Shown in pieces: positions 31,065 through 50,157 of a stretch of 64,000 bases of DNA. The position numbers were made by a program, and so were the translations under genes. The notes under the pieces are model-generated. The model saw only the letters and a list, made by a program, of their open reading frames with translations, was not told where the DNA came from and made no database searches. How positions within the stretch are numbered: the first letter of the stretch is position 1; every line of letters begins with the position of its first letter. Origin of the DNA: an uncultured Enterobacteriaceae bacterium (GTDB lineage Bacteria; Pseudomonadota; Gammaproteobacteria; Burkholderiales; SG8-39); contig CAZMGP010000021.1 in assembly GCA_964565875.1 (NCBI GenBank), positions 9,094 to 73,093 of the forward strand. Direction: 5' to 3'.

Positions 31065-31073
31065 AGATAGTCG

Positions 31074-31385: not shown

Positions 31386-31499
31386 GCGCGGCGATGCGCC
31401 TTGGGGGAAGCTCTAAGTAATGGCCTATTTCCCCGGAACGGACGATGAGCTTCCCTCTGAAGTGAGGGATATACGCCCCGAAGGAAGTCCCCTCGGGGG

Positions 31500-31522
31500 A
31501 CAAGGGGGCCGTGCCCCCTTGT
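31500..31522. terminator. Perfect 9-bp GC-rich hairpin between convergent genes (candidate bidirectional terminator)
   Basis: ACAAGGGGG[CCGTG]CCCCCTTGT lies between the 3' ends of 31074..31385 (+) and 31533..32141 (-). There is no clear U-tract on either strand. Confidence 0.4.
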
Positions 31523-31532
31523 TCGAACCTAT

Positions 31533-33113: not shown

Positions 33114-33197
33114 CCTGGTAACCCCTTTAGTAATTATGGTAAAAGCGGATGCTAATCTAGCCCGCAGGCGTGCCATTGATCAAGATCAAGCACGGGG

Positions 33198-33232
33198 GGC
33201 GCGAAGCGCGACCGGCTGGCGCGCTTCGCGCC
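33198..33232 (-). terminator. 12-13-bp perfect GC hairpin, candidate original terminator of tRNA-Arg, now displaced by the island
   Basis: GGCGCGAAGCGC[..11 nt..]GCGCTTCGCGCC lies ~25 nt beyond the distal att repeat, in the direction of tRNA transcription. No strong U-tract. Confidence 0.35.
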
Positions 33233-33255
33233 GCGCTGATCGGCCGACTGGGATT

Positions 33256-33272
33256 TGGCGCGCCCGACAGGA
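33256..33272. repeat. Distal att direct repeat (TGGCGCGCCCGACAGGA)
   Basis: Exact 17-bp copy of the 3'-terminal 17 nt of the tRNA-Arg gene (complement strand) found at 47422-47438. Confidence 0.8.
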
Positions 33273-33308
33273 TGAATCTGGGCACTGGCTAGAGATTATA
33301 ACCTTGCT

Positions 33309-33599
33309 CTAACCGCGGATGTTCGCAACGGCGATGCCTTGCGCGGCGCAATTACTCGTGTCGATGCCGTCCGCGCCGGTCGCCGCTACCGCGATCAAGC
33401 GAAGATCGGGCAGTTGTTGCACCGCCTCTGCTGTAAGTCGTGTCCTGTTTACGATCGCGACCGCGGCACCGATCAAGCGCGCCACCACTTCTTCTGGCCG
33501 CGTGTAACCGTATTCGATCAATCTATGCGCGAAGCCTGGCTTGCGCTGGTGAATCTGCGAGGCGATAGTGGCACGGTCGAGACAGACGATTTTCCGCAC
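33309..33599 (-). pseudogene. Truncated D-isomer-specific 2-hydroxyacid dehydrogenase (N-terminal 96 codons only)
   Basis: GTG start; MRKIVCLDRA...LRLIAVAATGADGIDTSNCAAQGIAVANIRG is the N-terminal substrate-binding lobe. The NAD-binding GxGxxG domain and the catalytic residues (about 220 aa) are missing. The ORF stops 37 bp from the att repeat. Confidence 0.7.
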
Positions 33600-33600
33600 G

Positions 33601-35655
33601 TCAGATTGAGGGGCGCGCGTGCAGGCAACGTTTTGCCGCGGTGACGACCGCCGCTGAGGTGATGCCGAAATGCTGATAGAGGACGTCGGCAGGTCCGGAG
33701 GCGCCGAAGCCGGTCATGCCGACGAATTCGCCGAACTCGCCAAGGTAACGGTCCCAGCCGAAACGCGCGGCCGCCTCAACTGCCACCCGTGCGCCAGTTG
33801 CCGGGAGGATGGACGATCGGTACGCCTTGTCTTGCGCTTCGAACAGTTCCCAGCTCGGCATTGAGACCACGGCTGTTGCTATGCCCTCGGACTGCAGCAT
33901 CGAGCGAGCCTGCAGGGCGAGCGTAACCTCCGATCCGGTCGCCAGGAGCGTAACCTCGCGACTGGCGCCATCGGCCTCGGCCAGCACGTAAGCGCCTCGC
34001 CGTGACAGGTTTTCGTCCGCGTGCAGGCTGCGTACGCTCGGCATCGCCTGTCGCGCAAAAATCATCGATACCGGGCCAGTGCGATGCTCCAGCGCGATCT
34101 CCCAGCATTCCGCCGCTTCCACTGCGTCGGCGGGCCGGAACACCAGCATGTTGGGCATGGCGCGCAACGCAGCGAGAATCTCGACGGGTTGATGGGTGGG
34201 CCCGTTCTTGCCCACACCGATGGAATCGTGGCTGAACACGAACTTTACCGGCAAGCCCATCAGGGCTGCCATGCGTAGCGATGGGCGTTCGTAATCGGCA
34301 AATGCGAGGTAGGTGACCGCAAGAGGAATAATTCCGCCATGCGCGGCCATGCCTACGGCCATCGCCCCCATAACGTGCTCGCGTACGCCGCAGTGCACAT
34401 AAGCACCGCTTCGGTCTTGTGCGGTAAACGCCTTCAGACGACGTTTGTGACTGGTGGGCGCCTCCAGATCGGCGCATGCCACCATGCGCTCGGGCAAGAG
34501 TTCGACCAGCAAATCGTTGATCTCGCCTGAGAGCATGATTCCGCCTTGCGGCGGATTCTGCGCGGGTGCGCCGCGCTTGTATTCGAGCAGTTTGTCGCGC
34601 CATCCATCGGGCAGTTCTCCCGCAATGACGCGATCGAACTCCGCTCGGTCTGCGTCGGACAAGGCCGCACGGCGCTCTTGCCACGCCTTGTACTCTGCAG
34701 CGCTGCGCCGGCCCGCGGCCCGCCACGTGCTTAGCACTGCCGCGGGCACTTCGAACGGCGGATGGGGCCAACCGAGCGCTTCCCGCGCCGCCTGCGCATC
34801 TTCATCATATAGCCTGGCGCTGTGACCGCCGCGCTGACCTTGCAGACGCATGATGCCTCGCGCGATGACCGTACGGCAGGCAATCAAGGATGGACGCGGA
34901 TCTCGCTTAGCCTGCGCAATGGCGGCGGATGCCGCCTCAATATCATGACCGTCAATCTCGATCACATGCCAATCTGCCACTCGGAATCGCGCAGCGACAT
35001 CCTCGCTGATCGACAGCGCCGTTCCACCGTCGTCGGTGATGCGGTTGTCGTCCCAGAACAGAACCAGCTTGCCGAGTCGCAGATGACCTGCCAGCGCGAT
35101 CATTTCTTGTCCGATGCCTTCCTGCAGGCAACCGTCGCCGACGAAGGCGTAAGTAAAATGGTTTACCAGGTTCGCGCCGAAACGCGCGTTCAGATACGCC
35201 TCGGCGACCGCCATGCCCAGGGCGTTGGCGATCCCCTGACCCAGTGGTCCCGTCGTTACCTCGATGCCGTGCGCCGGGTTGTGTTCTGGATGACCTGCGC
35301 AATGTGAGCCCAATTCGCGGAATCGCTTGATCTCGTCAAGCGAGATCGCCTCATAACCGGTCAGATACAGGAGCGAATAGAGCAGCATCGATCCGTGACC
35401 GTTGGAGAGCACGAAGCGGTCGCGATCCGGCCAAGTCGGGTCTGCAGGATTGAACTTCAAATGGCGAGAGAAAAGCGCAGTGGCGATCTCCGCCATGCCC
35501 AGAGGAACGCCCTGGTGGCCCTCAGTGGCACGCACGATCGCGTCAATCGACAGGAAGCGGATCGCATGCGCCAGCAACTGCGAATCGACTCCAGTAGCGG
35601 AAACAGGACGCTCCCCAATCTCCCGCGCGTTCGAATTACTTGCCATCGGCGTCAT
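33601..35655 (-). CDS. tkt: Transketolase (full-length, 684 aa)
   Basis: GHQGVPLGMAEIATALF...RDRFVLSNGHGSMLLYSLLYLTGY...GPLGQGIANALGMA...GDGCLQEGI are canonical TPP-binding motifs. Confidence 0.9.
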   Translation of the reverse strand: MTPMASNSNAREIGERPVSATGVDSQLLAHAIRFLSIDAIVRATEGHQGVPLGMAEIATALFSRHLKFNPADPTWPDRDRFVLSNGHGSMLLYSLLYLTGYEAISLDEIKRFRELGSHCAGHPEHNPAHGIEVTTGPLGQGIANALGMAVAEAYLNARFGANLVNHFTYAFVGDGCLQEGIGQEMIALAGHLRLGKLVLFWDDNRITDDGGTALSISEDVAARFRVADWHVIEIDGHDIEAASAAIAQAKRDPRPSLIACRTVIARGIMRLQGQRGGHSARLYDEDAQAAREALGWPHPPFEVPAAVLSTWRAAGRRSAAEYKAWQERRAALSDADRAEFDRVIAGELPDGWRDKLLEYKRGAPAQNPPQGGIMLSGEINDLLVELLPERMVACADLEAPTSHKRRLKAFTAQDRSGAYVHCGVREHVMGAMAVGMAAHGGIIPLAVTYLAFADYERPSLRMAALMGLPVKFVFSHDSIGVGKNGPTHQPVEILAALRAMPNMLVFRPADAVEAAECWEIALEHRTGPVSMIFARQAMPSVRSLHADENLSRRGAYVLAEADGASREVTLLATGSEVTLALQARSMLQSEGIATAVVSMPSWELFEAQDKAYRSSILPATGARVAVEAAARFGWDRYLGEFGEFVGMTGFGASGPADVLYQHFGITSAAVVTAAKRCLHARPSI

Positions 35656-35666
35656 GACTTGCTCCG

Positions 35667-36671
35667 TCAGCCGAGCCAGCCCTTGATGCGACGTGCCAGT
35701 GCCTCGCGACTGATGCCGTAACGCTCGTGCAGTGTCGGCAGCGCCCCGGCGTCGAGGAAGGCGTCGGGGAGACCGGCTAGTTCAAAACGAGCCGGCTGCA
35801 CGCGGTGGCGCATCAGCGCGCTCGCCACTGCCTCCCCCAAACCACCCACCACGGAGTGGTTCTCGGCCACGACGACCAGCCGGTGCTTGTAACGCACCGC
35901 TTCGACGATGGTCTCCTCGTCCAGCGGCTTGATGGTGGGACAGTGCAGCACCGCGACACTCACTTTGTCACCAGCCAGTGTCTCGGCCGCCTCCAGCGCA
36001 CGCATGGTCATGAATCCGCTGGAGATCACGACCACGTCTGCGCCGTCGCGCAATTGTTTGGCCTTGCCCAGCTCGAAACGGTAGTCGTACGCATCGAGCA
36101 CGAGCGGGACGTTACCCCGAAGCAGGCGCATGTAGACGGGGCCTTTGTGCGCATAAATCTGCGGCACGGCCTGCTCAATATCGAGCGCGTCGCAGGGATC
36201 GACAATGGTCATGCCCGGGATGGCGCGCATCATGGCGAGGTCTTCAGTGGCCTGATGGCTTGGGCCATACCCGGTTGTCAGGCCCGGCAGCGCACAACAC
36301 ATCTTGACGTTCAGGTTTTCCTCGGCGATCACCTGGTGGACAAAGTCGTAAGCGCGCCGTGTCCCGAAGACCGCATAGGTCGTCGCGAACGGCACAAATC
36401 CCTCCTTGGCAATGCCGCCGGCCGCACCCATGAGCAACTGCTCAGCCATGCCCATCTGGTAGAACCGCTCAGGGAATGCCTGAGCGAACAGGTGCAAGTC
36501 GGTGTACTTGGAAAGATCGGCCGTCATGCCGACAATGTCAGTGTGCTTCTCGGCGAGTTCCACCAGCGCTTTGCCGAACGGTGCTGCTTTGACGCGTTGC
36601 CCTTCCGCCGCGATCGACGCGATCATCGCCGACGTCGTCAGGCGCGGCTTTTTTTCCGTGACGGTGCTCAT
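35667..36671 (-). CDS. Split transketolase, C-terminal (pyrimidine-binding) subunit
   Basis: 334 aa. FGKALVELAEKHTDIVGMTADLSKYTDL..FPERFYQMGMAEQLLMGAAGG is the TktB-type subunit. It overlaps the upstream subunit gene by 4 nt. Confidence 0.85.
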   Translation of the reverse strand: MSTVTEKKPRLTTSAMIASIAAEGQRVKAAPFGKALVELAEKHTDIVGMTADLSKYTDLHLFAQAFPERFYQMGMAEQLLMGAAGGIAKEGFVPFATTYAVFGTRRAYDFVHQVIAEENLNVKMCCALPGLTTGYGPSHQATEDLAMMRAIPGMTIVDPCDALDIEQAVPQIYAHKGPVYMRLLRGNVPLVLDAYDYRFELGKAKQLRDGADVVVISSGFMTMRALEAAETLAGDKVSVAVLHCPTIKPLDEETIVEAVRYKHRLVVVAENHSVVGGLGEAVASALMRHRVQPARFELAGLPDAFLDAGALPTLHERYGISREALARRIKGWLG

Positions 36672-37534
36672 GCGGGGGCTCCTTCGAATTGCATCTGTGG
36701 TTGGTTCCGGTCAAGAACATCGATCGCCTGCTTCCACTCGGGCGGGTCGACTCTTATGAAATGGTTCTTCTCGCGCTGTTCAAGGAAGGGCACACCTTTG
36801 CCCATCAGCGTGTCGAAGAGGATGACGCGCGGCTTCGCGTCCTGCAGCCCGCGCGCCGCGTCGAACGCGGCAACGACTGCCGGCAAGTCATTACCGTTCA
36901 CGCGCTGCACCTGCCATCCGAAGGCGGCCCACTTGTCCGCTAGTGGCTCGAAGCCGAGGACTTTGCTTGACGGACCATCGGCCTGCTGATTGTTGATGTC
37001 CACCAAGCAAATCAGGTTCGCGAGCCTGAGGTGCGCCGCCGCCATTGCCGCCTCCCAGGTGGATCCCTCGTCGAGTTCGCCGTCGGACATCGAGTTGTAG
37101 ACAAAGGCGGGATTGCGCTTCTGCGCCAGACCCAACGCCATGCCCACGGCGATCGGCAGTCCCTGCCCGAGCGAGCCACCGGAGATCTCCATGCTTGGTG
37201 TGTAACTTGCCATACCCGACATCGGCAAGCGGCTATCGTCGCTGCCGTAGGTGTCGAGTTCGGACTCAGGAATGAGGCCCGCCTCGATGAGCGCTGCGTA
37301 AAAAGCGATGGCATAGTGGCCATGCGATAGCAGGAAGCGGTCGCGGCCCTCCCAATGCGGATCGTCCGGGCGGAATTTCATGGCGTGGCAGTAAGCGACG
37401 GCCAGAACGTCGGCATAGCCGAGCGCCTGACCGATGTAGCCTTGTCCCTGCACCTCGCCCATGCGAAGGGCGAAGCGCCGGATCCGATAGGCCCGCTGCG
37501 CAAGCTTGGCGAGCGTGGCAGTGTTATTGCTCAT
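36668..37534 (-). CDS. Split transketolase, N-terminal (TPP-binding) subunit
   Basis: 288 aa. GYIGQALGYADVLAVAY...RDRFLLSHGHYAIAFYAAL...GSLGQGLPIAVGMA is the TktA-type subunit. Confidence 0.85.
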   Translation of the reverse strand: MSNNTATLAKLAQRAYRIRRFALRMGEVQGQGYIGQALGYADVLAVAYCHAMKFRPDDPHWEGRDRFLLSHGHYAIAFYAALIEAGLIPESELDTYGSDDSRLPMSGMASYTPSMEISGGSLGQGLPIAVGMALGLAQKRNPAFVYNSMSDGELDEGSTWEAAMAAAHLRLANLICLVDINNQQADGPSSKVLGFEPLADKWAAFGWQVQRVNGNDLPAVVAAFDAARGLQDAKPRVILFDTLMGKGVPFLEQREKNHFIRVDPPEWKQAIDVLDRNQPQMQFEGAPA

Positions 37535-37567
37535 CGAAGTTTCTCCTGTGTAAGCAGTTTTCGCGAC

Positions 37568-38827
37568 TCAGAATATAGTCAGCCAGGGCAGATAGGCGAA
37601 CGCGAGCAGGAGCCCCAGCCCTACGGCATAGAACGGAATCAACTCGATTACGACGTCGCCGATGCGGACCTTGGCCAGCGTGCTGGTAATGAACAAAGTC
37701 GTGCCGATCGGCGGGTGATACAGTCCGATCGAAAGGTTCACGATCATCATTATGCCCAGTTGGACGGTGTCCATCCCCACCGCGGCCGCGAGCGGAACGA
37801 ACATCGGTGTCAGCAGGAGCACCGCCGCCGGCAGGTCGATGAACATCGCTGTCGCGAGCATGATCAGATTCATGGCAAGGATGATCAGCCATGGCGATTT
37901 AAGTGTCTGCGTTGCGTAGCGCGTGAATTCGGCTGGCAACTGCTCGTAGGTCACGATCCAGCCTACGATGCTCGATGCCATGATGATCAGCAGGACGACT
38001 CCGGTGGAAATTCCGGCCTCGACGGCGGCGGTTTTGATCTTCGCCACAGTGAGATCGCGATAGATCAGCCCGGCGACGAGCAGCGCGTACAGCGTCGACA
38101 TCACGCTCACCTCGGTCGGCGTGGCCACACCGAAGCGCAGGAAGATGATGATCAGGACCGGCATCGCCAGGGCGGGACCCGAGTGTGCGAGCTGGCGCCA
38201 GAATGCCGGCCACTGAAAGGGCGTGGTGTCGCGCGGGAAATTGCGGCGGCGCCCCTGCACGTAACACACGGCCATAAATCCGGCGCACATAAGCAAGCCA
38301 GGAAGAAGGCCTGCGACGAACAGCGCGCCGATCGAGGCGCCCGAGACCAGAGCGTAGATGATCATCGGGATCGACGGCGGAATCAGAATGTCGATGGTAG
38401 CTGCGGCCGCAAGCGAACCGGCCGCAAACGCGGGCGGATAGCCGAGCTTCTTCAGCCAGGGAATCAGCATCGATCCGATCGCGGAGGCGTCGGCTACGGC
38501 CGAGCCTGACACGCCGCCGAAGATGGTGGAGGACAACACGCCGACCTGCGCCGGCCCGCCATGGATGCGCCCGATCAGCATCGAAAGCAAAGTCACCAGA
38601 CTTTGCCCGAGTTTGCCGCTCACCATCAGCGCCCCCGTCATCATGAAGAACGGGATGGCGATCAGCGGAAAGCTTTGCGTCTGCGCGAGCATCTGCTCGA
38701 CCGCAAGGTGGACTGGAATCTTGTCCGCGATAAGCAGTCCGCCGACCGATGCCAGCACGAGCGCGTGCGCGATCGGGATCGATAGGAGCGCAGCCGCAAT
38801 GAAGAGCGCGATGATCAGCGTTGTCAC
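37568..38827 (-). CDS. dctM: TRAP transporter large permease (DctM family)
   Basis: The GTG at 38827 follows the dctQ stop after a 1-nt spacer (VTTLIIALFIAAALLSIPIAHALVL...). Polytopic, about 420 aa. The longer track ORF adds an Arg-rich extension overlapping dctQ. Confidence 0.85.
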   Translation of the reverse strand: MTTLIIALFIAAALLSIPIAHALVLASVGGLLIADKIPVHLAVEQMLAQTQSFPLIAIPFFMMTGALMVSGKLGQSLVTLLSMLIGRIHGGPAQVGVLSSTIFGGVSGSAVADASAIGSMLIPWLKKLGYPPAFAAGSLAAAATIDILIPPSIPMIIYALVSGASIGALFVAGLLPGLLMCAGFMAVCYVQGRRRNFPRDTTPFQWPAFWRQLAHSGPALAMPVLIIIFLRFGVATPTEVSVMSTLYALLVAGLIYRDLTVAKIKTAAVEAGISTGVVLLIIMASSIVGWIVTYEQLPAEFTRYATQTLKSPWLIILAMNLIMLATAMFIDLPAAVLLLTPMFVPLAAAVGMDTVQLGIMMIVNLSIGLYHPPIGTTLFITSTLAKVRIGDVVIELIPFYAVGLGLLLAFAYLPWLTIF

Positions 38828-38828
38828 G

Positions 38829-39353
38829 TTAAACGCCCTGCCTCGCGTCCGTCGTCGCATCGTCATGTCCGTGCGCATCCGCCTTCCCAGCCCAGACGTC
38901 GGGGAGCCGGCACAAAGTCGCCAGGGCAAGCAGCGCGAAACCGACCATCAGGCAGCCGACGCTCGCCGAGCCCGGCACTTTCAGCACGGGTGTGCGTTCG
39001 TCTGCTGCGACCTGCAGTACCGGCCAGGAGATCCACGCCAATGAGGTATACAGCGCGGCCACGGTTAGCGATCCGGCTGCAAGCACCCAGCGCCGTGCCG
39101 CGCCGAGCTTTTGCGTCAGGATTACAACCGAGATGTGCGAGCCGTGCTGGGCCGCGAGCACGACGCCGGCCATGATGAGCCACGGAAACAGCAATTCCGG
39201 AAGCTCGGAGGCCCACGCCAGGCTGCCGCCCGCCATGTAGCGCAGCGGTACATTGACCCCGAGGATGGCAAACACCACGGCGAGCGTCACGTACAGCACG
39301 CCGCGGCAAACAAAACCGATCGCACTATCGATAAGTCGTAAGAGTGCCATCAC
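38829..39353 (-). CDS. dctQ: TRAP transporter small permease (DctQ family)
   Basis: 174 aa with four hydrophobic helices, lying between the dctP and dctM homologues. Confidence 0.8.
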   Translation of the reverse strand: MMALLRLIDSAIGFVCRGVLYVTLAVVFAILGVNVPLRYMAGGSLAWASELPELLFPWLIMAGVVLAAQHGSHISVVILTQKLGAARRWVLAAGSLTVAALYTSLAWISWPVLQVAADERTPVLKVPGSASVGCLMVGFALLALATLCRLPDVWAGKADAHGHDDATTDARQGV

Positions 39354-39363
39354 GGATTTCGCC

Positions 39364-40350
39364 TTAGTTTGCCTGGCTGACGACGCGCTTGACGAAATCG
39401 CCGATCGAACCAGACGACCACTTGCTGTAGACGGATTTGGTCGCTTCGACGAAGGCTTTGTTATCGACCGTGTCGATCTGTACGCCCTTCGCTTTCAGCT
39501 CCGCAGCAAGTTTGTCGTCCGCTTCTTTAGACAATTTGCGCTGTAGCTGGGTGGCTTCGGCGGCCGCTTCAGCAAAGATCTTCTGGTCCGCAGCGGCTAG
39601 GCGGTCCCAGGTGCGTTTGCTGACCACGAAAGGCGTGGCCTCGTATTTGTGGCCGGTCAGGCTGAGATACTTCTGCACCTCGTAGAGCTTCGACGACGCG
39701 ATGTTCGCGAGCGGATTTTCCTGGCCGTCCACCACCCCCTGCTGCAACGCGACATAGAGCTCAGCAAACTTGATCTGCTGCGTGGCCGCACCGAGGGCCT
39801 GCATGATATCTGCGGTCATCTCGTCGGGCGGGATGCGGATCTTCAACCCTTTCACGTCCGCCGGCGACTTGATCGGCCGCTTGCTATTGGTGATGTGGCG
39901 GATGCCGTTGTCCCAGTAACCGAGGACAACCATGCCTTTGGCCGCGTTCAGCTTGGCCAGATCGGCACCGATCGGGCCGTCGAGCAGCTTCCAGGCCTTT
40001 TGCACGTCATTGAAAAGGAACGGCAGTCCGAGTGCGGCGTACTCCGGGACGACGTTCGCCATTGCACCCTGGCTATTGGCCGACATGTCCAGCGTGCCGG
40101 AGCGCAGTGCGGTAACCATTGCTGCGTCATCGCCGAGTTGGGCGGAATGGGCCACTTGGATCTCAATGCGACCGGCCGTCTTCGCCTTCACCCTTTCGGC
40201 GAATAGCACCGCCGCCTCGTGCCGCGGATTACCGGGCGCGGCGCCGTGTCCGAGAGTCAGTTTGACCGCTTGTGCCTGCACCGCAAGCGGCGCCATCAGT
40301 GCGCCGAGCGCCAAGGCAATCGCCGCGCGAAAGAATACTTTGCGTTCCAT
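39364..40350 (-). CDS. dctP: TRAP transporter substrate-binding protein (DctP family)
   Basis: Taken from ATG 40350: MERKVFFRAAIALALGALMAPLAVQAQAVKLTLGHGAAPGNPRHEAA...GTLDM is the DctP pattern. Confidence 0.85.
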   Translation of the reverse strand: MERKVFFRAAIALALGALMAPLAVQAQAVKLTLGHGAAPGNPRHEAAVLFAERVKAKTAGRIEIQVAHSAQLGDDAAMVTALRSGTLDMSANSQGAMANVVPEYAALGLPFLFNDVQKAWKLLDGPIGADLAKLNAAKGMVVLGYWDNGIRHITNSKRPIKSPADVKGLKIRIPPDEMTADIMQALGAATQQIKFAELYVALQQGVVDGQENPLANIASSKLYEVQKYLSLTGHKYEATPFVVSKRTWDRLAAADQKIFAEAAAEATQLQRKLSKEADDKLAAELKAKGVQIDTVDNKAFVEATKSVYSKWSSGSIGDFVKRVVSQAN

Positions 40351-40393
40351 GATTTCCCCCCTCCTTCGAAAATGCGCCGCCAATCGGCGCCGA

Positions 40394-41143
40394 TTAGTGA
40401 ATCAACATGCCGCCATTTACATCGAGCGTAATGCCCGTGAGATAGCTGGAAAGATCGCTCGCCAGGAACAGACAGCAGTTCGCGACATCGAGCGCATCAC
40501 CGAGCCGATTCAACGGAATCCCTTTCAGGATTTCCGCCTTCAGTTCGGGCGTGAGCTTTCCGCCGGTGATGTCGGTCTGGATCAGGCCTGGCGTCACAGA
40601 ATTGACGCGCACGTTGTCCGGGCCCAGTTCGCGCGCCATGGCCTTATGCAGACCGAGAACGCCCGCCTTGGCTGCGGAGTAGTGCGGTCCGCCGAAGATA
40701 CCGCCACCGCGCTGAGCCGAAACCGACGAAAGGCAAATGATCGATCCCGCTTTGCGCTGGCGCATGTGCGGGATCACGGCTTGACTCATGTAGAGCGTGC
40801 CCCGCAGCGACACATCGGTCACGGCTTCGTAGTTTTCTGGTTGAATTTCCATCAGTTTCAGCGGTTGCGTGATGCCGGCGTTGTTCACGAGTATGTCGAC
40901 GCGTCCGAGCTTCTCAATGACGGCCGCTGCCGCGCGTTCGCAATCGCTCTTTTTTGTCACGTTGCACGCGAGCCCGATGTGGTCGGAGCCAATGTCGGCA
41001 GCGGCAGCCGCCGCCGCGTCCGCACTCAAATCCAGTATGGCAACACGCGCGCCCTGTTCTGCGAAGAGTCGAGCCGTCGCTTTACCGATACCACGCGCCG
41101 ATGCAGCCCCCGTAACGATGGCAACCCTGTCCTTTAAAAGCAT
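40394..41143 (-). CDS. SDR-family oxidoreductase (FabG-like)
   Basis: Taken from ATG 41143: MLLKDRVAIVTGAASARGIGKATA (TGxxxGxG motif), NNAG, and YSAAK (YxxxK catalytic motif). Confidence 0.85.
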   Translation of the reverse strand: MLLKDRVAIVTGAASARGIGKATARLFAEQGARVAILDLSADAAAAAAADIGSDHIGLACNVTKKSDCERAAAAVIEKLGRVDILVNNAGITQPLKLMEIQPENYEAVTDVSLRGTLYMSQAVIPHMRQRKAGSIICLSSVSAQRGGGIFGGPHYSAAKAGVLGLHKAMARELGPDNVRVNSVTPGLIQTDITGGKLTPELKAEILKGIPLNRLGDALDVANCCLFLASDLSSYLTGITLDVNGGMLIH

Positions 41144-41290
41144 GAGACCTCCCTCTGTCAGTCGGTGACATGCAAAGCGCCGCCACCGCAATTCCGTGTC
41201 TGGAATTCTGGGCATGGATGATCATGAAGACAAGAGATACTTTATCAGCGTAAGATGACGTTTTGTCATGTTACCTACATAGCGATAGTG

Positions 41291-42172
41291 ATGAGCTCGC
41301 ATCCGCCGATCAGCAATTTGCTTGCTTTCGAGACCGTCGCCCGACGCCGCAGTTTTGCGGTGGCCGCCAAGGAACTACACCTCACCGCCTCGGCGGTGAG
41401 TCATCAGGTTGCGCGTCTGGAATCTGCATTGGGCGTGCGCTTGTTCGAGCGCAATGCGCACGGCGTGAAACTGAGCGCTGCAGGCGAGCGCTATTTGACG
41501 CGTGTGAGCGGAGCGCTTGCAGCCATCAACAGCGCGAGCGACGACCTGCGCCAGGGCGTCGGCAACAGTTTGTATCTGCACGCTTCGCCCAGCTTTGCCA
41601 GCCTTTGGCTGATGCCCCGCCTCAGCGACTTCACGCGGTCGCATCCAGAGGTCTCGCTCAATCTTTCGGCTGCGCATACGCACAGTGATTTCGCGCTCGG
41701 ACAGGCCGATCTCGACATCCGCTATGGCGTGCCGCAGTGGCCGGATCTTGAAATCGTTCCACTCTTCGAGGAAAGGATTCTTCCCCTGGCCAGCCCGTGG
41801 TTCATTCGCGAGCATAGGCTGCGGCGAGCGGAACGTTTGCGCGATGCCCCGCTGATACAAAGCAACGTTAATGTCGTACAGTGGTCCGACTGGCTGCGTC
41901 GCTTCACGAATTTGCAAACGCCTGAGCGCTTCGCGCTGCGATTCGATCGCGCGCAGATGTCACTCGATGCGGCGATACAGGGTCTGGGCATTGCGCTGGA
42001 AAGTGCCACCATTGCCGGCAAGCACATCCGCGAGGACAAGCTGCGGCCGGTTTTCGGACTCGACAAAGCGATCAAGGTTAAGGCGCATTTTGCGGTGTAC
42101 CCGGCGCGACACGCTCGGCGCCCCACTGTTGCGACTTTTCTGCATTGGTTGCATAGGCAGTCTGCAACGTAA
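41291..42172 (+). CDS. LysR-family transcriptional regulator (GcvA-like), divergent from the SDR-TRAP-transketolase operon
   Basis: Taken from ATG 41291: PISNLLAFETVARRRSFAVAAKELHLTASAVSHQVARLESALGVRLFER is the LysR wHTH domain. Confidence 0.85.
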   Translation: MSSHPPISNLLAFETVARRRSFAVAAKELHLTASAVSHQVARLESALGVRLFERNAHGVKLSAAGERYLTRVSGALAAINSASDDLRQGVGNSLYLHASPSFASLWLMPRLSDFTRSHPEVSLNLSAAHTHSDFALGQADLDIRYGVPQWPDLEIVPLFEERILPLASPWFIREHRLRRAERLRDAPLIQSNVNVVQWSDWLRRFTNLQTPERFALRFDRAQMSLDAAIQGLGIALESATIAGKHIREDKLRPVFGLDKAIKVKAHFAVYPARHARRPTVATFLHWLHRQSAT

Positions 42173-42486
42173 CGTCGGCAAGATACTTTGTTGGATCGGG
42201 GCATCGTCCAGAATGATTCCTTTGGCTCGATAGCGCCAGTTTGTCCTTAGAACATGTAGCAGAAGATCATCGGCGCAAAGCGGTCGGAAGGAATTTCGCG
42301 CTCAGAGCTACTGAATGGAGTGGAATCGTCGGTGTCGCCACCTCGCGACGACCGCCCGCAGCGCAAGCGAGGACGGACGCCGCGAGGCGGCGGACCTGGT
42401 CAGCCTGGCCCCCGTTGTGTAGTAACACGGGGGCCTACGGATACAACAGCCCCCTTTCTGCCCTCGTTTGCCTGATTCCAACTTTC

Positions 42487-43125
42487 CTAAAGCAATCCGC
42501 GCTCGGCAAAGCTCAGAGTCTTGTTGCCTGCGATGATGAAGTGATCCAGGGTTTTGACGTCAACCAGCGCCAATGCCTGCTTTAGCGTACCCGTAAGCAG
42601 TTCGTCTGCCCGGCTGGGCTCGGCTACGCCGGAGGGGTGATTGTGGGCAAAGATCACGGCGGCAGCATTGACCTTTAGTGCGGCCTTTACCACCTCCCGA
42701 GGATAAACGCTTGCCTGCGTCAGCGTGCCCCGGAACAGTTCTTCGGTAGTAATAACCCGGTTCTGGGCGTCCAGAAAGATCACGGCAAAGACTTCATGCG
42801 GCAGACCTGCAAGGCGAAGTCTAAGGAAATCACGCACAGCGGCCGGACTGCATAGGGCGTCCCGGTGCTTCAGCTCTTCGGCCAGGGATCGGGCGGCTAG
42901 TTCCTTGGCTGCCTGCAGCTTGGTCAGGGGGTCGCCCGTATAGCTGCGCTTCACTTCAGAACAAAAGAGGTCGCCCGCTTCCTGCGGGGTCTGGTGCAGC
43001 AGGGCATACAGGGACCCTTTCGCATTGCGTAGCAGAGTTTCCGCCGTCTTACGGTTACCTAACAGCACGGTAAGCAGTTCGATATCGGAAGATGCCGAGA
43101 TAATCATTTCAGAGTTGAGCAGCAT
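42487..43125 (-). CDS. radC: RadC-family JAB/MPN domain protein
   Basis: AAGGAGG RBS. The C-terminal JAMM motif context is [20 protein letters not shown]. RadC is a typical passenger of integrative elements. Confidence 0.85.
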
Positions 43126-43389
43126 TTGCGCCTCCTTTGCGCTGGTTAAAAACTGCTGCTCATGCGAAGTTCTCTTCGCCTCCCCCTGGGGGGACGGGAG
43201 GGGGAGGTTTAGGTTGGAAATGCTTTAGCCGCCCAGCTTCGGCGGCTTGTCTTTGCTGCTCACGCTTTCGTCCCCTTCACTCGAAGATGAGGGGCGAAAG
43301 AAAGAGAGCAGCGACCATGCCGCGTTGGGCGGTGCGTTTCGGATGGGCTACGGGGGGCAAGGCGACGCGGCAGTTCGCGTCGTAGGTTT

Positions 43390-43490
43390 GCAACCGCGTG
43401 ACAGGAAGCTTTGTCCTGGCGCGTGCGTTGCGGGGGCGAGGTAAGCAGCAATCACGTGACAGGGTGGTTCATCCTGGCGCGTGGGTTGCG
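43390..43490. repeat. Two tandem copies (period 58 bp) of a ~43-bp unit, each an imperfect long hairpin
   Basis: 43390-43432 is GCAACCGCGTGACAGGAAGCTTTGTCCTGGCGCGTGCGTTGCG. 43448-43490 is GCAATCACGTGACAGGGTGGTTCATCCTGGCGCGTGGGTTGCG. In each unit, GTGACAGG.. and ..TCCTGGCGCG, and the outer GCAA./.GTTGC, are self-complementary. Confidence 0.6.
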
Positions 43491-43622
43491 TAAGGCTGGC
43501 GCCTCTATTTGTGGGGATCATGGCTTGCCGGGCCCGCGAGAACTAGCGACGATTAACGAGCATCGAAGAGATCCAGCGAACTCCAAGCGCAATATCGAGC
43601 GGGAATTGGCGACCTGTATAAA

Positions 43623-43651
43623 TTGACAGCCTCTAGGATTTCGTCTAAGCT
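43623..43651 (+). promoter_or_regulatory. Sigma70-like promoter for the 43805-45628 module
   Basis: TTGACA, a 17-nt spacer, then TAAGCT, ~150 nt upstream of ATG 43805. It is followed by repeated AAGCTT/CAGCTT palindromic half-sites at 43647-43674. Confidence 0.4.
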
Positions 43652-43804
43652 TTGCGAACAGCTTGGATAGAAGCTTGCCGCCCACCAGTAGGCGCAGTCG
43701 CTCCGACACTATCGGCAATTCAAATCTTTTTTCGGTGAGCTTAGTCGCAGCCGGATCATAAGTGGGCGGTGATTCAATGCTGCATGGACTAGGAGCACTG
43801 AGAG

Positions 43805-44356
43805 ATGCCTGATGTAATCGTCATTCCCTCCGCGGCGGTTGAGGCGCTACGCCGCAAGGCCAAGAAGCTACGCAAGGAACAAGGGGTGCCGCATCACGCG
43901 GCGCTCGATGCGGTTGCGCGCGCGGGCGGCCGGTTTCCCGACTGGCACCATTTGATCGAAGCGGCAAAGGCGACGGAGCCCGCCGAAGAAGCCTTCAAGC
44001 ACGGCCTTGTGATCGGCATGGACATCAAGGACGCGCTGCAGATGCCTGCGGCGAAACTTACCCATTTCATCGAAGATGAACGACTGCAGTACTTTGTCTT
44101 CGATGACTTCGACCTGCACCCGACGGGTGGCCTGGGGGTGGACGAAGATTTGCGCATCGACTCGGTTTATCAAACCGTGTTCTACCGGTCGCGCCGGATC
44201 GTGCCCGCATCGCTTGAAGAAGCGTTCAAATTATGCCGCGCGGATTTCTTCTTCGCGCCACGGTACGTGCGCCTGGGCGGCATCGTCATGTTCGATGTGG
44301 TGGTGGGTGAAGAGGGCGAAGAGGATGAAGATGGCAAAGGGGGGCGCGATGAATGA
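43805..44356 (+). CDS. Hypothetical protein (183 aa) with acidic C-terminal tail
   Basis: AGGAG RBS. Protein-like sequence. The N-terminal segment (ALRRKAKKLRKEQGVPHHAALDAVARAGGRFPDWHHL) resembles a short motif I recall from many island-borne hypothetical proteins. Function unknown. Confidence 0.5.
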   Translation: MPDVIVIPSAAVEALRRKAKKLRKEQGVPHHAALDAVARAGGRFPDWHHLIEAAKATEPAEEAFKHGLVIGMDIKDALQMPAAKLTHFIEDERLQYFVFDDFDLHPTGGLGVDEDLRIDSVYQTVFYRSRRIVPASLEEAFKLCRADFFFAPRYVRLGGIVMFDVVVGEEGEEDEDGKGGRDE

Positions 44357-45440
44357 AGCACCGGCGCCTGGAGTAAAGCTCCTGCTCTTCGGGTGCGACA
44401 CCATCGAATGCGCCTATTACCTGCAGCCGGGACGCGGGCAGGGTCTGGACTTTGGCGGGCTCATCCTGGAACGCGAGCGCCTGCGCCAGAGCAAGAGCCG
44501 GGATCCCAAGCTCGTGACCTTGGGCGGGATGGAATTCCTGCTGCAGCGCTACGGTTCGAGCTCCGGCTACCCGATCGTGCTCGATAACGCCGACATGACC
44601 ATCCAATGCGGCGAGCTCAATAGTCCGTCTTTCTTCGTCACCTACCGTTCGGAAGCCCTCTGGCGAGATTCCCCGCAGGTGCTGCACGACCGGTTCATGT
44701 CCTGGGCGGATGGCCTGGGATTCCAGGCGCAAAAGCGCGAAGGCTTATCGAGGGTAGATTTCACCTTCGATTATCACCTGCCAGCGGTCGATTTCGATGA
44801 GGAGAGCTTCGTATCGCTCTCCTCTGCCGATAGCAAGTTCCGGCGCGACCGCAAGCTCCGGGGGGTGGCCTTCGGGCAGTCCGACGTACGGCTGCGGGTC
44901 TATGACAAGGTGGCGGAGATCGAGGAGCAAAGCCTCAAGGTCTGGTTCTATGACCTCTGGGGCCGTAAGGACGAAGTCTGGCGCATCGAATGGCAGGTAA
45001 GGAAGGAAGTCTTGAAGCGCTTTGGCATCCGCACCTTTGCGGATCTGGCGGATCAGCAAGGCGACGTACTGCGTTACCTCGCCACGGAACACGATACCTT
45101 GCGCATCCCGAACTCGGATCCGAATCGCTCACGCTGGCCGCTGCACCCTCTTTGGATCGACCTGCAGGCGCAAATCGCGCAGCTCCCGGCCCAGGGCGTG
45201 TATCGGGAGATGGACCCCCAGGCTGCGCTGCGCGAGCGCCTCTACCGCCTCGCCATCAGCATGTACGGCAATCTGAAGCGCCTGGCGGCGCTCGATGGCG
45301 TACAGCGCGGCGCGGCGGAGGTATCCAAGATCGAGGCCATGGAACGGCTAAGTGAGCTCGTTAGCCGGGTGCACGATCCTCTCAACTGGCAGATCGACGT
45401 GCAAAAGCGCATCGACCAGGTGAGGCTGGGGCAATGGTGA
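44349..45440 (+). CDS. Replication initiation factor (Rep_trans / phage gene II-like rolling-circle initiator) family protein
   Basis: ATG 44349 follows AAGGGGGG and overlaps the upstream ORF by 8 nt. Motifs LSRVDFTFDY, VRLRVYDKVAEIEE and EVWRIEWQVRKEVL fit the RvD..D / YDK..E / wRvE pattern of this family as I remember it. Confidence 0.55.
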   Translation: MNEAPAPGVKLLLFGCDTIECAYYLQPGRGQGLDFGGLILERERLRQSKSRDPKLVTLGGMEFLLQRYGSSSGYPIVLDNADMTIQCGELNSPSFFVTYRSEALWRDSPQVLHDRFMSWADGLGFQAQKREGLSRVDFTFDYHLPAVDFDEESFVSLSSADSKFRRDRKLRGVAFGQSDVRLRVYDKVAEIEEQSLKVWFYDLWGRKDEVWRIEWQVRKEVLKRFGIRTFADLADQQGDVLRYLATEHDTLRIPNSDPNRSRWPLHPLWIDLQAQIAQLPAQGVYREMDPQAALRERLYRLAISMYGNLKRLAALDGVQRGAAEVSKIEAMERLSELVSRVHDPLNWQIDVQKRIDQVRLGQW

Positions 45441-45628
45441 TGCTGCAGGCGATCGTCGATGCGCTGAACGCCCGCAAGAACAAAGTGCTGCTGCTTGCGC
45501 AGGCTGCGCTGCCGGATACGCAGTTTCAGGCATTTCGCAAGCTCTTTCTCGGTGAATTTGGCAGGGACGGACTGGAACGGGAGTTGGAACACCTCTTCGC
45601 CGGGAAAGACAAGGAACGGAGCCGCTAG
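45434..45628 (+). CDS. Small hypothetical protein (64 aa)
   Basis: The ATG overlaps the Rep-like stop (ATGGTGA), suggesting translational coupling. Helical sequence with no recognisable family. Confidence 0.4.
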   Translation: MVMLQAIVDALNARKNKVLLLAQAALPDTQFQAFRKLFLGEFGRDGLERELEHLFAGKDKERSR

Positions 45629-45666
45629 GGCGGGAATAGACATGCAAGAAAGGAGGTGCGCTATGT

Positions 45667-45837
45667 GTGCGAGACGACACGAACAATTCCGAAGTCCGAA
45701 ACGTCAATGTGGTGTTTAGGCGGGACTTCAAAGATGGGACGCTCTCAGAACGGGAGCGGGAGTGCCTGCGCGCATTCCTGCCCGGACTGATAATGGAGCT
45801 CGTCCAAACAGGTTTGCAGGATCACGACGAGGAGTAA
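45667..45837 (+). CDS. Possible small ORF (56 aa, GTG start) ending 6 nt before the recombinase ATG
   Basis: Not in the track because it is under 60 aa. VRDDTNNSEVRNVNVVFRRDFKDGTLSERERECLRAFLPGLIMELVQTGLQDHDEE. AGGAGG lies 10 nt upstream. A competing 18-codon ATG ORF at 45663 has better spacing. Confidence 0.25.
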   Translation: MRDDTNNSEVRNVNVVFRRDFKDGTLSERERECLRAFLPGLIMELVQTGLQDHDEE

Positions 45838-45843
45838 TCGATC

Positions 45844-47451
45844 ATGGCGGCAGCGCTCTATGCTCGGGTATCGACCACACGGCAGGCGGAGAACGAGCTC
45901 TCCATTCCGGACCAGTTGCAGCAGATGCGCGACTGGTGCAAGGCGCAGGGCATGCTCGTCGCCAAGGAATACGTGGAGCCGGGGGCCTCGGCGACAGATG
46001 ACCGGCGCCCGGTGTTCCAGGACATGATCGCGGATGCCACGATCAGCCCGGCGCCCTTCGAGGTCATAGTGGTGCATAGCCTGTCGCGCTTCTTTCGGGA
46101 CGCGATCGCCCTGGGGCTGTATGAGCGAAAGCTCGCCAAGCATGGCGTGAAAGTGATCTCGATCACGCAGCAGACGAGTGATGACCCCTCAGGCGAGCTC
46201 ACCCGGCGCATCTTCTCGGTGTTCGATGAGTATCAGAGCAAGGAAAACGCCAAGCACACCTCCCGTGCCATGCGCGAGAACGCAAGACGCGGGTACTTCA
46301 ACGGCTCGCACGCCCCCTTTGGCTACCAGGTGGTCGCTACCGAAGCGATCGGCAACCGCGGCCGCAAAAAGAAAAAACTCGCCATCGATGAAGGGGAATC
46401 AACCATCGTGCGGCGCATCTATGAACTCTATCTCGAAGGGCTCGACGGCAGGACGATGGGGATCAAGGAGATCGCCAAATACCTGAACGCCAGGGGGCAA
46501 CTCATGCGCGGCCGGCCCTGGCGCATCCAGAAGGTGCACGAGGTGCTATCTGGCCGGGCCTATCTCGGTGAGCACTACTTCAACGTCAAGGACTCCCGCA
46601 CCAAGAAGAAGCGCCCGCCGTCTGAGTGGATCAAGGTCATGGCCGATCCGATCGTGGACGAGGAAACCTTCGAGCGGGTGCGCCAGCGGCGCGAGGAACG
46701 CTCGCCGGCCACGCAGGCGCCACGCCTGGTGTCTTCCCCTACCCTACTCACAGGCTTGCTCAAATGCGGGCATTGCGGCGCGGGTATGACCTTGACGACG
46801 GGCAAGAGCGGCCGCTACCGGTATTACAAGTGCACGAATCGCTTGAGTAAGGGCAATGCGCAGTGCGCAAGCGCGAATGTCCCGATGGAGAAACTTGACG
46901 AACTGGTGATCGAGCGGCTCGCTGATCGCGCCTTCACCCCGGAACGGCTGCAGCTGATGCTGGCAGAAGCACGCCATCTGCTGAACGCCAGGCAATCGGA
47001 AGACAAGGCGAAGCTTGCGACCCTGCAAGCGGATTTGAAGCGTGCGGAGGGCCGGCTAAATCGGCTCTACGATGCGCTTGAAACCGGTGTGGTCGAGCTC
47101 GATGACACCTTCCAGCGCCGGGCTCACCAGGCCAAGGCTGGGCGCGAATCGGTGCTGATCGAAATGGCGGGCTTGAGAAGGCGTCAGGCACTGCCGCTTG
47201 CGCGCATCCTGCCAAGCCATGTTGCGGCGTTCTCCAAGGTCATACGGGCGCGGCTTCGGGACAAGTCCTCAGGATTCGCCAAAGACTACCTGCGTGCCGT
47301 GGTGGACGAGATCCGTATCGAAGGGAAGGCAGCGACGATTTCGGGAAGTTATGAACGGCTGGTCGCAGCGGTTGCAAACAAAAAAGAGGGCACCGGTCTA
47401 GTGCCCTCTTTTATGCGTGAATGGCGCGCCCGACAGGAGTCGAACCTGTGA
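45844..47451 (+). CDS. Large serine recombinase (integrase of the island)
   Basis: [14 protein letters not shown] carries the catalytic Ser. A resolvase-type domain ([11 protein letters not shown]), a recombinase domain, a Cys-rich zinc-ribbon segment (CGHCGAGM...[15 protein letters not shown]) and a long helical tail follow. The last 30 nt overlap tRNA-Arg. Confidence 0.85.
47422..47438. repeat. Proximal att direct repeat, the 3' end of tRNA-Arg (TGGCGCGCCCGACAGGA)
   Basis: Identical to 33256-33272. It covers part of the T-stem 3' arm, the acceptor 3' arm, the discriminator base and CCA. Confidence 0.8.
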
Positions 47452-47498
47452 CCTTTGGCTTCGGAAACCAACACTCTATCCAGCTGAGCTACGGGCGC
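47422..47498 (-). tRNA. tRNA-Arg (anticodon CCG), 77 nt with encoded CCA
   Basis: Folded by hand. Acceptor GCGCCCG/CGGGCGC, D-arm GCTC/GAGT, anticodon arm TTGGT-[TTCCGAA]-GCCAA, variable loop AGGTC, T-arm ACAGG-[TTCGACT]-CCTGT, discriminator G, CCA. Confidence 0.9.
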
Positions 47499-47507
47499 GT
47501 AGGCGAA

Positions 47508-47513
47508 AGTATA
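47508..47513 (-). promoter_or_regulatory. Possible -10 box (TATACT) for tRNA-Arg
   Basis: On the minus strand, TATACT lies 9 nt upstream of the mature tRNA 5' end. The -35 region is poor (TGGAGG at a 17-nt spacing). Confidence 0.3.
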
Positions 47514-47693
47514 CCGGCTTTTGCCCTTAGCCTCCATGCGCACGCGCTTTCAAGGGGTTGGCGTTTGCGACTATAATGCGCGCGTTTGCAAGGACTTAAG
47601 AGCGCTCGCCAGGCTTGAGCCGGCGGGCGCGAGAACAGAGGGAGAACAAGGGCGCGCGCCCGCAAAGCGGAGTGCCGACGCCAGAGGAAATCC

Positions 47694-48476: not shown

Positions 48477-48661
48477 CAGCGGCGCATTCCAGACAAAGGG
48501 GCGGGATCCGCCCTGCTTCGTACGCGCGGCAAGCGCGGCGAATTGACAGTCGCGACCACCCAGGGTCACACTTCCATGGCTTGCCGGTCCATGCGATGCC
48601 GCAAGGCACGCACGACATCCCGGCCTGGATAGAACACCAACAACCCTGGAGGAGAAAGACT

Positions 48662-50153: not shown

Positions 50154-50157
50154 TCGC

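Follow-up and report, generated by a model that had tools for sequence, protein, structure and literature searches.

The stretch analysed here, called the window throughout, is 64,000 nucleotides of contig CAZMGP010000021.1 (assembly GCA_964565875.1) from an uncultured betaproteobacterium of a mine-drainage metagenome, assigned to the Burkholderiales. The subject is the interval 33256-47438, which is bounded by an exact 17-bp direct repeat and abuts a gene for tRNA-Arg(CCG). The repeated 17-mer, TGGCGCGCCCGACAGGA, has only two copies in the window (33256-33272 and 47422-47438), both on the same strand, and no extra copy appears with up to two mismatches. The proximal copy is the final 17 nt of the tRNA gene, CCA included. 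The interval is best read, with a probability of about 0.8, as a single integrated element of 14166 bp that belongs to a family combining a serine integrase with a Rep_trans-fold protein and that carries captured cargo. Related loci and contigs are referred to by L numbers. The two junctions hold the following features:

33256..33272, plus strand: distal 17-mer, with the same sequence as the 3' end of the tRNA; host DNA lies on its left
33271..33292, plus strand: P' arm, the conserved end of the element, GATGAATCTGGGCACTGG; its GGGCAC stands 24 nt from TGG
45844..47451, plus strand: large serine recombinase (LSR) of 535 aa, with Resolvase, Recombinase and Zn_ribbon_recom domains and the catalytic motif YARVS (R8, S10)
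47382..47412, no strand assigned: conserved hairpin in the 3' end of the integrase gene, GAGGGCAC...GTGCCCTC, containing the P-arm motif AGTGCCC (47400-47406)
47422..47498, minus strand: intact tRNA-Arg(CCG), called by ARAGORN and Rfam (66.8 bits)

Base composition changes at the same two junctions. G+C is 0.58-0.63 within the interval against 0.66-0.70 outside, and the tetranucleotide distance is elevated over 33-48 kb. The G+C profile appeared to dip from about 30.5 kb, and the boundary was settled instead by GC3, the G+C at third codon positions. GC3 is 0.65-0.80 for the 15 open reading frames (ORFs) between the repeats (genes, small ORFs and a truncated dehydrogenase), 0.85-0.91 on the left flank (RNase G, a CMD-family gene and TctC) and 0.85-0.92 on the right (cytochrome c, TctCBA and GshB); the change coincides exactly with the two repeats. 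Four marks by which tRNA islands are recognised are present: the tRNA is intact at one end and its 3' end is repeated directly at the other, an integrase lies beside the tRNA, and the composition deviates. An earlier note on this DNA, made by reading the letters, had described the repeat pair, assigned its second copy to the 3' end of tRNA-Arg(CCG) and put the odds of a chance recurrence very low. Word search, ARAGORN and Rfam bear out the pair and the assignment, and 0 of 100 dinucleotide-preserving shuffles yield two or more copies of the 17-mer. The compositional difference that it had expected is likewise seen in windowed G+C and in codon composition, with GC3 switching at both repeats.

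By its sequence, the recombinase beside the tRNA is an LSR and not a tyrosine integrase. The Pfam matches are PF00239 (1.4e-27), PF07508 (5.6e-19) and PF13408 (5.3e-18), and 30 aligned homologues all keep R8 and S10 as well as C308, C311, C330 and C341. Known serine integrases are distant: SPbeta YokA matches with an E-value of 1e-12, and the CcrB model scores 140 bits against a cut-off of 900. Closer relatives number in the thousands, at 55-85% identity over full coverage. The reading frame stays open until the TGA at 47449-47451, placing its last 30 nt and the stop codon within the tRNA gene.

This arrangement is general in the family. Genomic contexts were taken for four relatives on long contigs and for 80 metagenome loci reached through the alignment of 30 homologues, 84 loci altogether. 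At 54 of the 84 an opposite-strand tRNA gene is intact and contains the last 12-66 nt of the LSR ORF, giving 55 with the window. Seven tRNA species serve as targets: Arg(ACG) at 17 loci, Arg(CCG) at 13 including the window, Asn(GTT) at 11, Glu(TTC) at 7, Thr(TGT) at 3, and Arg(CCT) and His(GTG) at 2 each. Most loci where no tRNA was called either stop too early or carry a tRNA 3' fragment at that spot, often the 3' half cut at the anticodon loop and then followed by other foreign DNA. W527 and R528, invariant in the LSR alignment, are encoded by TGG-CGN, which is the CCA end with its two preceding bases read in antisense. GTGCCC lies 15 nt ahead of this TGG in essentially all loci, whichever tRNA is used, and is the right half of a hairpin that has an A-run and a T-run at its sides. 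The hairpin of the window, at 47382-47412, scores as a minus-strand intrinsic terminator, directly downstream of the tRNA.

A separate observation concerns L088 (11579-11640) and also L099, L101, L114, L117, L118 and L134, where the LSR element adjoins only the 3' half of a tRNA; in L088 the foreign DNA beyond this half holds a tyrosine integrase. This indicates that one tRNA can be occupied in tandem, a serine-integrase element sitting at its CCA end and an island of the tyrosine-integrase type at its anticodon loop.

The distal end is conserved too. The terminus in the window comprises 18 nt (33271-33288), starting with the last two bases of the distal repeat and running inward; GATGAATCTGGGCACTGG is single in the window even with up to three mismatches, and 3 of 100 shuffles gave any match. 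Every locus was searched for GGGCAC 24 nt after a start matching the 3' end of its own tRNA. Distal ends were found at 16 further places, namely 15 metagenome or genome loci and an isolate of Rhodocyclus tenuis (GCA_016583865.1, NRRZ01000002.1, element at about 495.8-501.6 kb); L086 and L087 are one element on two contigs. Methylomonas sp. 11b (GCA_000515215.1) is another cultured carrier of the family. The consensus of the P' end is TGGcGCGCCcga.agGATGAAtCTGGGCACTGG. In L088, for example, the tRNA-side junction reads ...AGTGCCCTCTTTTATGAGTGAT|TGGCGCGCCCGAGAGGATTCGAAC and the distal end, 3.4 kb upstream, ...AAAAA|TGGCGCGCCCGGACGGATGAATCTGGGCACTGGCAG, and the distal site of the window reads |TGGCGCGCCCGACAGGATGAATCTGGGCACTGGCTAG. 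The elements so delimited measure 2993 bp (L125), 3420 bp (L088), 4665 bp (L086), 5.2-7.0 kb (twelve loci) and 9847 bp (L160); the window element, at 14166 bp, is the largest mapped.

How much of the repeat takes part in strand exchange can be judged from these pairs of ends. Serine integrases recombine attP with attB, the attachment sites of element and target, through a 2-bp staggered cut, and both junctions of one element must share the overlap dinucleotide. In the mapped elements 6-18 nt match the tRNA without interruption: L160 shares 18 nt and the window 17 nt, L125 shares TGGTGCG, and L086, L106 and L113 share no more than TGGCGT. Beyond it the P' arms (TGGCGTGCCATACCGGATGAA, TGGCGTGCCAAGCATGATGAA, TGGCGTGCCATAGAGGATAAA) resemble one another and not decayed host tRNA. 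Because some junction pairs share only 6 nt and the P' arms are mutually alike, the crossover would fall within the first ~6 nt, and its location at the CCA end (CCA, the discriminator base and two more) is likely. The remainder of the 17-mer in the window then reads as attP mimicking the tRNA. Use of the whole 17-mer as a crossover segment, in the style of tyrosine integrases, was considered and rejected, since L086, L106 and L113 share TGGCGT only and have similar P' arms.

The attP reconstructed from the window (about 47380-47421, the 17-mer, and 33273-33300) contains an inverted repeat, AGTGCCCAG / CTGGGCACT, with arms about 37 nt apart, the left one inside the 3' end of the integrase gene. 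Between the arms lies an imitation of the tRNA 3' end (TGGCGCGCCCG..GGAT). The dyad is centred on base 5 of the 3' end of the tRNA, one of the 6 nt that are shared. The start of the P' arm co-varies with the target, being TGGCTCCCC at Asn, TGGCGT at Glu and Arg-CCT and TGG(C/T)GCGCC at Arg genes. L145 has an Arg(ACG)-type P' arm within tRNA-Arg(CCG), and this mismatch of P' type and target implies that elements move between tRNAs.

Three other loci show contiguous arms. In L124 (1-160) and L150 (3570-3680) the P arm, core and P' arm form attP-like junctions; L124 has a 70-nt copy of the integrase 3' end preceding its own distal end, and in L150 the integrase is followed by one P' arm and, 45 nt on, a second P'-like arm. 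These could be tandem copies or read-through of a circular form in other family members. In L169 (5039-5075), a 6.6-kb IMG/VR contig with one of the four Rep relatives met among viral contigs, the integrase is followed by TGGCTCCCCGTCCTGGGCACT, the P'-like motif standing 11 nt closer than in all other members; this odd, shortened P-core-P'-like junction may be a deleted site or a free form. A pattern search of IMG/VR for free attP forms gave 11 hits, about the chance estimate, none of them near an integrase.

Inward from the integrase lie a conserved hairpin, a Rep_trans-fold protein and a 64-aa ORF, which together with the LSR form the core of the family. In the window this part of the element is as follows:

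42407..42446, plus strand: hairpin GGCCCCCGT-loop-ACGGGGGCC then CTACGGATACA, conserved in the family and forming the inner border of the cargo slot
42487..43125, minus strand: RadC-family JAB-domain protein, common only to the closest relative, L089
43390..43490, plus strand: pair of imperfect palindromes of 43 nt each, 81% alike, the second starting 58 nt after the start of the first
43805..44356, plus strand: orf183, accessory, with relatives in L089, L105, L110 and L111 and a weak N-terminal match to NCBIfam PRK05973
44325..45440, plus strand: Rep_trans-fold, rolling-circle initiator- or relaxase-like protein (366-371 aa; protein-collection entry P0121)
45434..45628, plus strand: orf64, small core protein with relatives at 47 related loci (tblastn)
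45667..45837, plus strand: orf56, just upstream of the integrase, with relatives in L089 and L090

The hairpin (GTAACACGGGGG; CCCCCGT-loop-ACGGGGG(G) then CTAyAAATACA) lies upstream of the gene for the Rep-like protein in 27 of 35 loci and is single in the window. It is a candidate rolling-circle origin, origin of transfer (oriT) or operator. Most mapped elements have 3.3-3.9 kb between hairpin and tRNA; the window, where RadC and orf183 are extra, has 5.0 kb. By tblastn the Rep-like protein is present at 48 related loci, orf183 at four and RadC in L089 alone, whose LSR is 85% identical to that of the window. The palindrome pair sits in the 680-nt spacer between RadC and orf183, with a folding energy of -50 kcal/mol, and was not found as a family-wide motif. 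L125 (8595-11588), the 3.0-kb member, does without the Rep-like gene and consists of two cargo genes, a hairpin beside the LSR and the integrase.

The Rep-like protein, orf64 and orf56 have no match in Pfam, NCBIfam, PHROGs or PDB sequences. Homologues of the Rep-like protein are more telling: 24 of 28 match PF02486 (Rep_trans) below threshold, with a best E-value of 9.6e-7, 16 of 28 weakly match PF05144 (Phage_CRI; best E 1.3e-5), and two are named by NCBI as replication-initiation-factor or replication-domain proteins. An AlphaFold2 model built from the alignment (mean predicted local distance difference test score 84, predicted template modelling (TM) score 0.72) finds the Rep_trans structures 4cij and 4cwe as top Foldseek matches (E 6e-12 to 1.5e-7, target TM 0.56-0.58), followed by TBP folds. 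On this model the protein is predicted to have a Rep_trans (TBP-like) fold. The earlier note's label of Rep_trans-like thus stands through the homologues and the fold match and does not stand on the sequence of the protein itself, which matches nothing in Pfam, NCBIfam or PHROGs. Y31 and Y251 are invariant among the homologues. More than 1,100 relatives exist at E <=1e-5 among protein clusters at 90% identity, from beta-, gamma- and zetaproteobacterial sources; annotated collections yield only matches of 28% identity, to 'replication initiation factor' genes of Bacillus megaplasmids. A tblastn search of 50,697 phage records gave no match, and 2.9 million IMG/VR contigs gave only four relatives. 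Rep_trans proteins start rolling-circle replication at a hairpin origin, and their MobT relatives are the relaxases of ICEBs1/Tn916-type and some mobilizable elements (PMC5704250, PMC7563843). The chances that the protein acts at the 42.4-kb hairpin may be put at about even. The small orf64 may serve as a directionality factor or a regulator.

Between the distal end and the hairpin the window element carries a cargo of about 9 kb, a sugar-type transport and catabolism operon with its regulator:

33309..33599, minus strand: truncated D-2-hydroxyacid dehydrogenase, N-terminal 96 aa (2-Hacid_dh positions 21-91 of 134)
33601..35655, minus strand: full-length transketolase
35667..37534, minus strand: split transketolase (C-terminal half 35667-36671, N-terminal half 36668-37534)
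37568..40383, minus strand: TRAP transporter (DctM 37568-38929, DctQ 38829-39353, DctP 39364-40383)
40394..41215, minus strand: short-chain dehydrogenase/reductase (SDR), first gene of the operon
41255..42172, plus strand: LysR-type regulator, divergent from the operon

The true start of DctM is probably near 38810. The dehydrogenase is a stump lacking the NAD-binding domain, with its stop codon at 33309-33311 and 36 nt between stop and repeat, and it marks the left breakpoint of the cargo, the edge cutting the gene about 20 nt from the P' arm. The gene content given in the earlier note (a recombinase abutting the tRNA, radC, and a LysR gene with its operon) is upheld, as is the truncation near the distal repeat, the stop codon lying 37 nt from the last base of the repeat. 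That the operon is LysR-regulated also stands; its description as complete does not, its last gene being only the N-terminal 96 aa.

Judged by comparison with other members, the stretch from distal end to hairpin is the variable cargo slot of the family. Its length is 1.07-3.2 kb elsewhere and 9.17 kb in the window. Slots elsewhere contain GmrSD-type restriction enzymes, an FRG-domain protein, a fused methylase/HsdR-N/specificity protein, a reverse transcriptase, a GGDEF-TPR protein, an ArsP permease, HicB and a trypsin-like protease, and the larger slots of L160 and L089 contain TctC, a D-serine-dehydratase-like gene and phosphatases. The slots of L105, L109, L121, L166 and L104 hold one to three genes, often of phage-defence type, and several slot proteins have no Pfam match. 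Cargo genes usually end 20-80 nt from the P' arm, and the truncated dehydrogenase does likewise. With the island so identified, the TRAP-transporter/transketolase operon counts as horizontally acquired in this genome. A search for the repeats or transposase of an insertion-sequence or cassette mechanism found no cargo-flanking repeats above chance and no transposase. As to a donor, megablast against plasmids returned only gene-level nucleotide matches of about 74%, in chromids of Paraburkholderia and Caballeronia.

Information on occupancy of the site comes from relatives and from the source samples. The pair formed by tRNA-Arg(CCG) and cytochrome c is conserved across the Burkholderiales, and at 0 of 80 Burkholderiales loci with this pair is the integrase present, or any of the left-flank genes of the window downstream of the tRNA. 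A collection of species genomes was scanned with the neighbouring cytochrome c, the best match being only 66% identical; absence from these 80 distant loci fits acquisition and is not an empty-site allele. L145 is a closer host (GshB 89% identical), and there this tRNA holds another member of the family, 6.3 kb long and with an LSR 55% identical. In L039 (Massilia sp. BSC265; 2641-2712 and 9752-9827) the orthologous tRNA-Arg(CCG) is accompanied by a partial tRNA-Arg copy 7 kb off; this is a different island at that tRNA and lacks the integrase described here. From four mine-drainage runs, contigs were compared with 31000-49500, bearing in mind that contigs cannot show rare excision. The island is at the depth of its flanks and the distal junction is continuous, and no joint that skips the island or joins it back on itself is seen. 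Contigs break inside the tRNA at 47442-47451 (L001/L002 and L003/L004) with a 10-nt overlap and a rise in depth, in both source runs; this break probably reflects tRNA words common to other community members and not an alternative junction.

No type IV secretion, coupling-protein or FtsK-like gene is found among the ORFs scanned in 33256-47438, and no capsid genes are found in the element. Judged as an integrative and mobilizable element (IME), it has its own integration module and lacks mating-pore genes, and the only candidates for a transfer function are the Rep_trans-fold protein and the conserved hairpin.

Two other regions of the window may be recorded here. A TctC-TctB-TctA cluster (48581-51672) lies between cytochrome c and gshB, and its GC3 looks native. 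In L005 and L145, the two closest relatives seen, gshB directly follows cytochrome c, and the cluster is therefore an insertion here or a loss there. For the TctC of the left flank, an exact-protein look-up found nothing on record. At 21237-24200 (minus strand) a 987-aa ORF consists nearly entirely of Ala/Glu/Arg/Gln repeats, with a hydrophobic stretch near its C-terminal end; it is probably a coiled coil and gives rise to the strongest composition outlier of the window (G+C 0.72-0.74, AT skew about -0.5).

Taken as one element, the interval could work as follows. The LSR would join the attP of a circular form to the tRNA 3' end, with strand exchange at the CCA-proximal bases, in the first ~6 nt. 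The tRNA would stay intact, the element adding at most its final few bases and a new terminator hairpin. The ORF of the integrase would end in tRNA antisense (...WRARQESNL) when integrated and in the P' arm (...WRARQDESGHWLEIITLL) in the circle, its C-terminal tail changing upon integration because an att arm sits in the 3' end of the integrase gene. Excision would require the integrase and a directionality factor, a role for which the conserved orf64 readily suggests itself, and the excised circle could then be copied, or nicked for transfer, by the Rep_trans-like protein. The predicted circle junction is ...CTCTTTTATGCGTGAA|TGGCGCGCCCGACAGGA|TGAATCTGGGCACTGGC... and the predicted repaired site ...GGCCGACTGGGATT|TGGCGCGCCCGACAGGA|GTCGAACCTGTGACC.... 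The slot would have taken about 9 kb of foreign chromosomal DNA, cut inside its last gene, presumably by illegitimate recombination. Spread would need a helper or transformation, because there are no capsid or mating-pore genes.

Several points weigh against reading 33256-47438 as one such element. The truncated end of the cargo requires at least one event that was not site-specific and that could have damaged mobility. Neither an empty site nor a circular junction is seen, the four source-sample runs having been examined as assembled contigs. About eight related loci with 8-10 kb of upstream sequence have no recognisable distal end. The spacer of the attP dyad is odd, centring on one base rather than between two, and the window dinucleotides around the centre (CG, GC) are palindromic, only TG and GG of the CCA end being polar; a serine integrase needs a polar overlap. 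The hairpin lies left of RadC in the window and right of it in L089, and the core region has therefore been rearranged. The Rep-like protein of the window, taken alone, fails all sequence-profile libraries, with no PF02486 match at E <=0.01.

The alternatives divide according to how much of the element they accept. Chance recurrence of the 17-mer, or its presence as a stray piece of a tRNA, without any mobile element has next to no likelihood: G+C-rich words do recur in G+C-rich DNA, and TGGCGCGCCCG occurs with one mismatch at chance frequency, yet no shuffle of the 100 held two copies, the adjoining 18 nt are a family-conserved terminus and GC3 switches at both copies. A two-step history, with the distal att and the operon left over from an earlier island of this family and a small RadC-Rep-LSR element added afterwards, so that the 14.2 kb would be two elements, is unlikely. 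It would suit the truncated final cargo gene, the slight difference in G+C between cargo (0.615) and core (0.599), the second islands beside the LSR element in L088, L099, L101, L117, L118 and L134, and the P-core-P' junctions in L124 and L150. It also leads one to expect a second tRNA-like core and P' arm at 42.2-43.8 kb, and there is none, the P' arm being single at up to three mismatches with no TGGCGCGCCCG-like copy; moreover the operon lies between P' arm and hairpin, where all mapped members keep their variable genes.

Of greater weight, at perhaps one chance in four, is the view that the element is real and is now a fixed, immobile remnant, its excision, replication or transfer disabled by the 9-kb insertion or a subsequent rearrangement, kept only as a metabolic island of the host. 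Uniform depth and the lack of any variant junction in the four source-sample runs are what it predicts; the element is the largest mapped, at 14.2 kb against a typical 5-7 kb, and its RadC/hairpin order is unlike that of L089. Set against these are the intact integrase, Rep-like gene, orf64, hairpin and both att arms, free of frameshifts, and two 17-mers that are still identical; rare excision is not visible in contigs. A relation to filamentous phages, the elements being inovirus-like satellites or remnants with a gpII-type Rep and packaging into a helper phage, is very improbable. The weak matches of 16 of the 28 Rep homologues to PF05144, the gpII N-terminal domain (best E 1.3e-5), speak for it, as do element sizes of 3-7 kb, which resemble those of RS1/TLC-type satellites. 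Neither the window nor the sampled slots hold morphogenesis (Zot/pI) or coat genes, the Rep-like protein is without a match in the 50,697 phage records and has four relatives in IMG/VR, and the matches to plasmid Rep_trans proteins are stronger. The reading as a single integrated family member with captured cargo keeps the terminus, the tRNA-tied recombinase family and the cargo slot together, in agreement with the earlier note, which proposed a single acquired element, or one with captured cargo added, at the 3' end of the tRNA.

Genes for tRNA are the classic landing sites of tyrosine integrases. Islander-type and P4-like tRNA islands share with the present element an intact tRNA with a displaced 3' fragment, an integrase beside the tRNA, cargo and a break in composition. 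They differ in using a tyrosine integrase with exchange in the anticodon or T loop, whereas here an LSR would act at the CCA end (within 6 nt) and one att arm lies within the integrase coding sequence. According to reference work on islands, serine integrases are not known to use tRNA genes (PMC4383910), and a later survey found tyrosine enzymes by far the commonest at tRNA sites (PMC10484663). The serine integrases of phiC31, Bxb1, A118, TP901-1, SPbeta (SprA/YokA), CcrAB and TndX have the same three-domain architecture, catalytic serine and short att sites of inverted half-sites. Known phage serine integrases and those carried by ICEs (integrative and conjugative elements) use protein-coding or intergenic targets that are usually disrupted (PMC5704250), whereas here several tRNA genes are used and preserved.

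Gram-positive mobilizable elements resemble the family in being small and in combining an integrase, a Rep_trans-family protein and cargo without conjugation pore genes; their Rep_trans proteins act as rolling-circle initiator and/or relaxase (PMC5704250). Among them, IMESag-rpsI as well as IME_Sga2069_rpmE employ tyrosine integrases at the 3' ends of genes, and IME_oriT employs one at the nic site of an ICE oriT. Those with serine integrases insert within dispensable genes (PMC5704250) and not, as here, at tRNA genes. The listed IMEs are Gram-positive, whereas the family occurs in Beta-, Gamma- and Zetaproteobacteria and its Rep falls below the Pfam threshold. Actinomycete ICEs such as pSAM2, SLP1 and pMEA300 (PMC2440964) likewise join integration at tRNA 3' ends to rolling-circle replication of the excised form, but have mostly tyrosine integrases and an FtsK-like Tra for double-stranded transfer, and no Tra is present in the ORFs scanned here. 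The tycheposons of Prochlorococcus (bioRxiv 10.1101/2020.12.28.424599) also target tRNAs, carry cargo and have their own replication genes, and 27 of 937 have a large serine recombinase. They belong to marine cyanobacteria, are overwhelmingly of the tyrosine-integrase type, and have primase, helicase and polymerase genes, not Rep_trans; this comparison sets them apart by description. No description of a tRNA-targeting serine-integrase family was found in the literature searched, which is limited evidence and not proof of absence, and this large family of small serine-integrase tRNA elements is apparently undescribed. The concept of a tRNA island with cargo is ordinary; what sets this one apart is the unexpected enzyme family and the unusual, compact att design.

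A single island in one genome is routine, and the interest lies in the family that it reveals. The clade uses at least seven tRNA genes and leaves all of them intact. With a minimum size of 3 kb and a slot of one to three genes, its members form a compact vehicle for defence and metabolic genes in environmental bacteria. Serine integrases are favoured for the insertion of large DNA, having short sites and needing no host factors. The conserved target at the tRNA end and the apparently co-varying attP make these enzymes candidates for integration vectors of wide host range and a model for the resetting of specificity. A tentative and rather doubtful proposal goes further, namely that the clade reads general features of tRNAs (the CCA end and the geometry of acceptor and T arm) and is retargeted by altering the tRNA-mimicking stretch of attP. 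If true, the enzyme would be a serine integrase 'reprogrammable' by nature, for which almost any genome offers landing sites, and the clade would be the first defined among serine integrases to be dedicated to tRNA genes.

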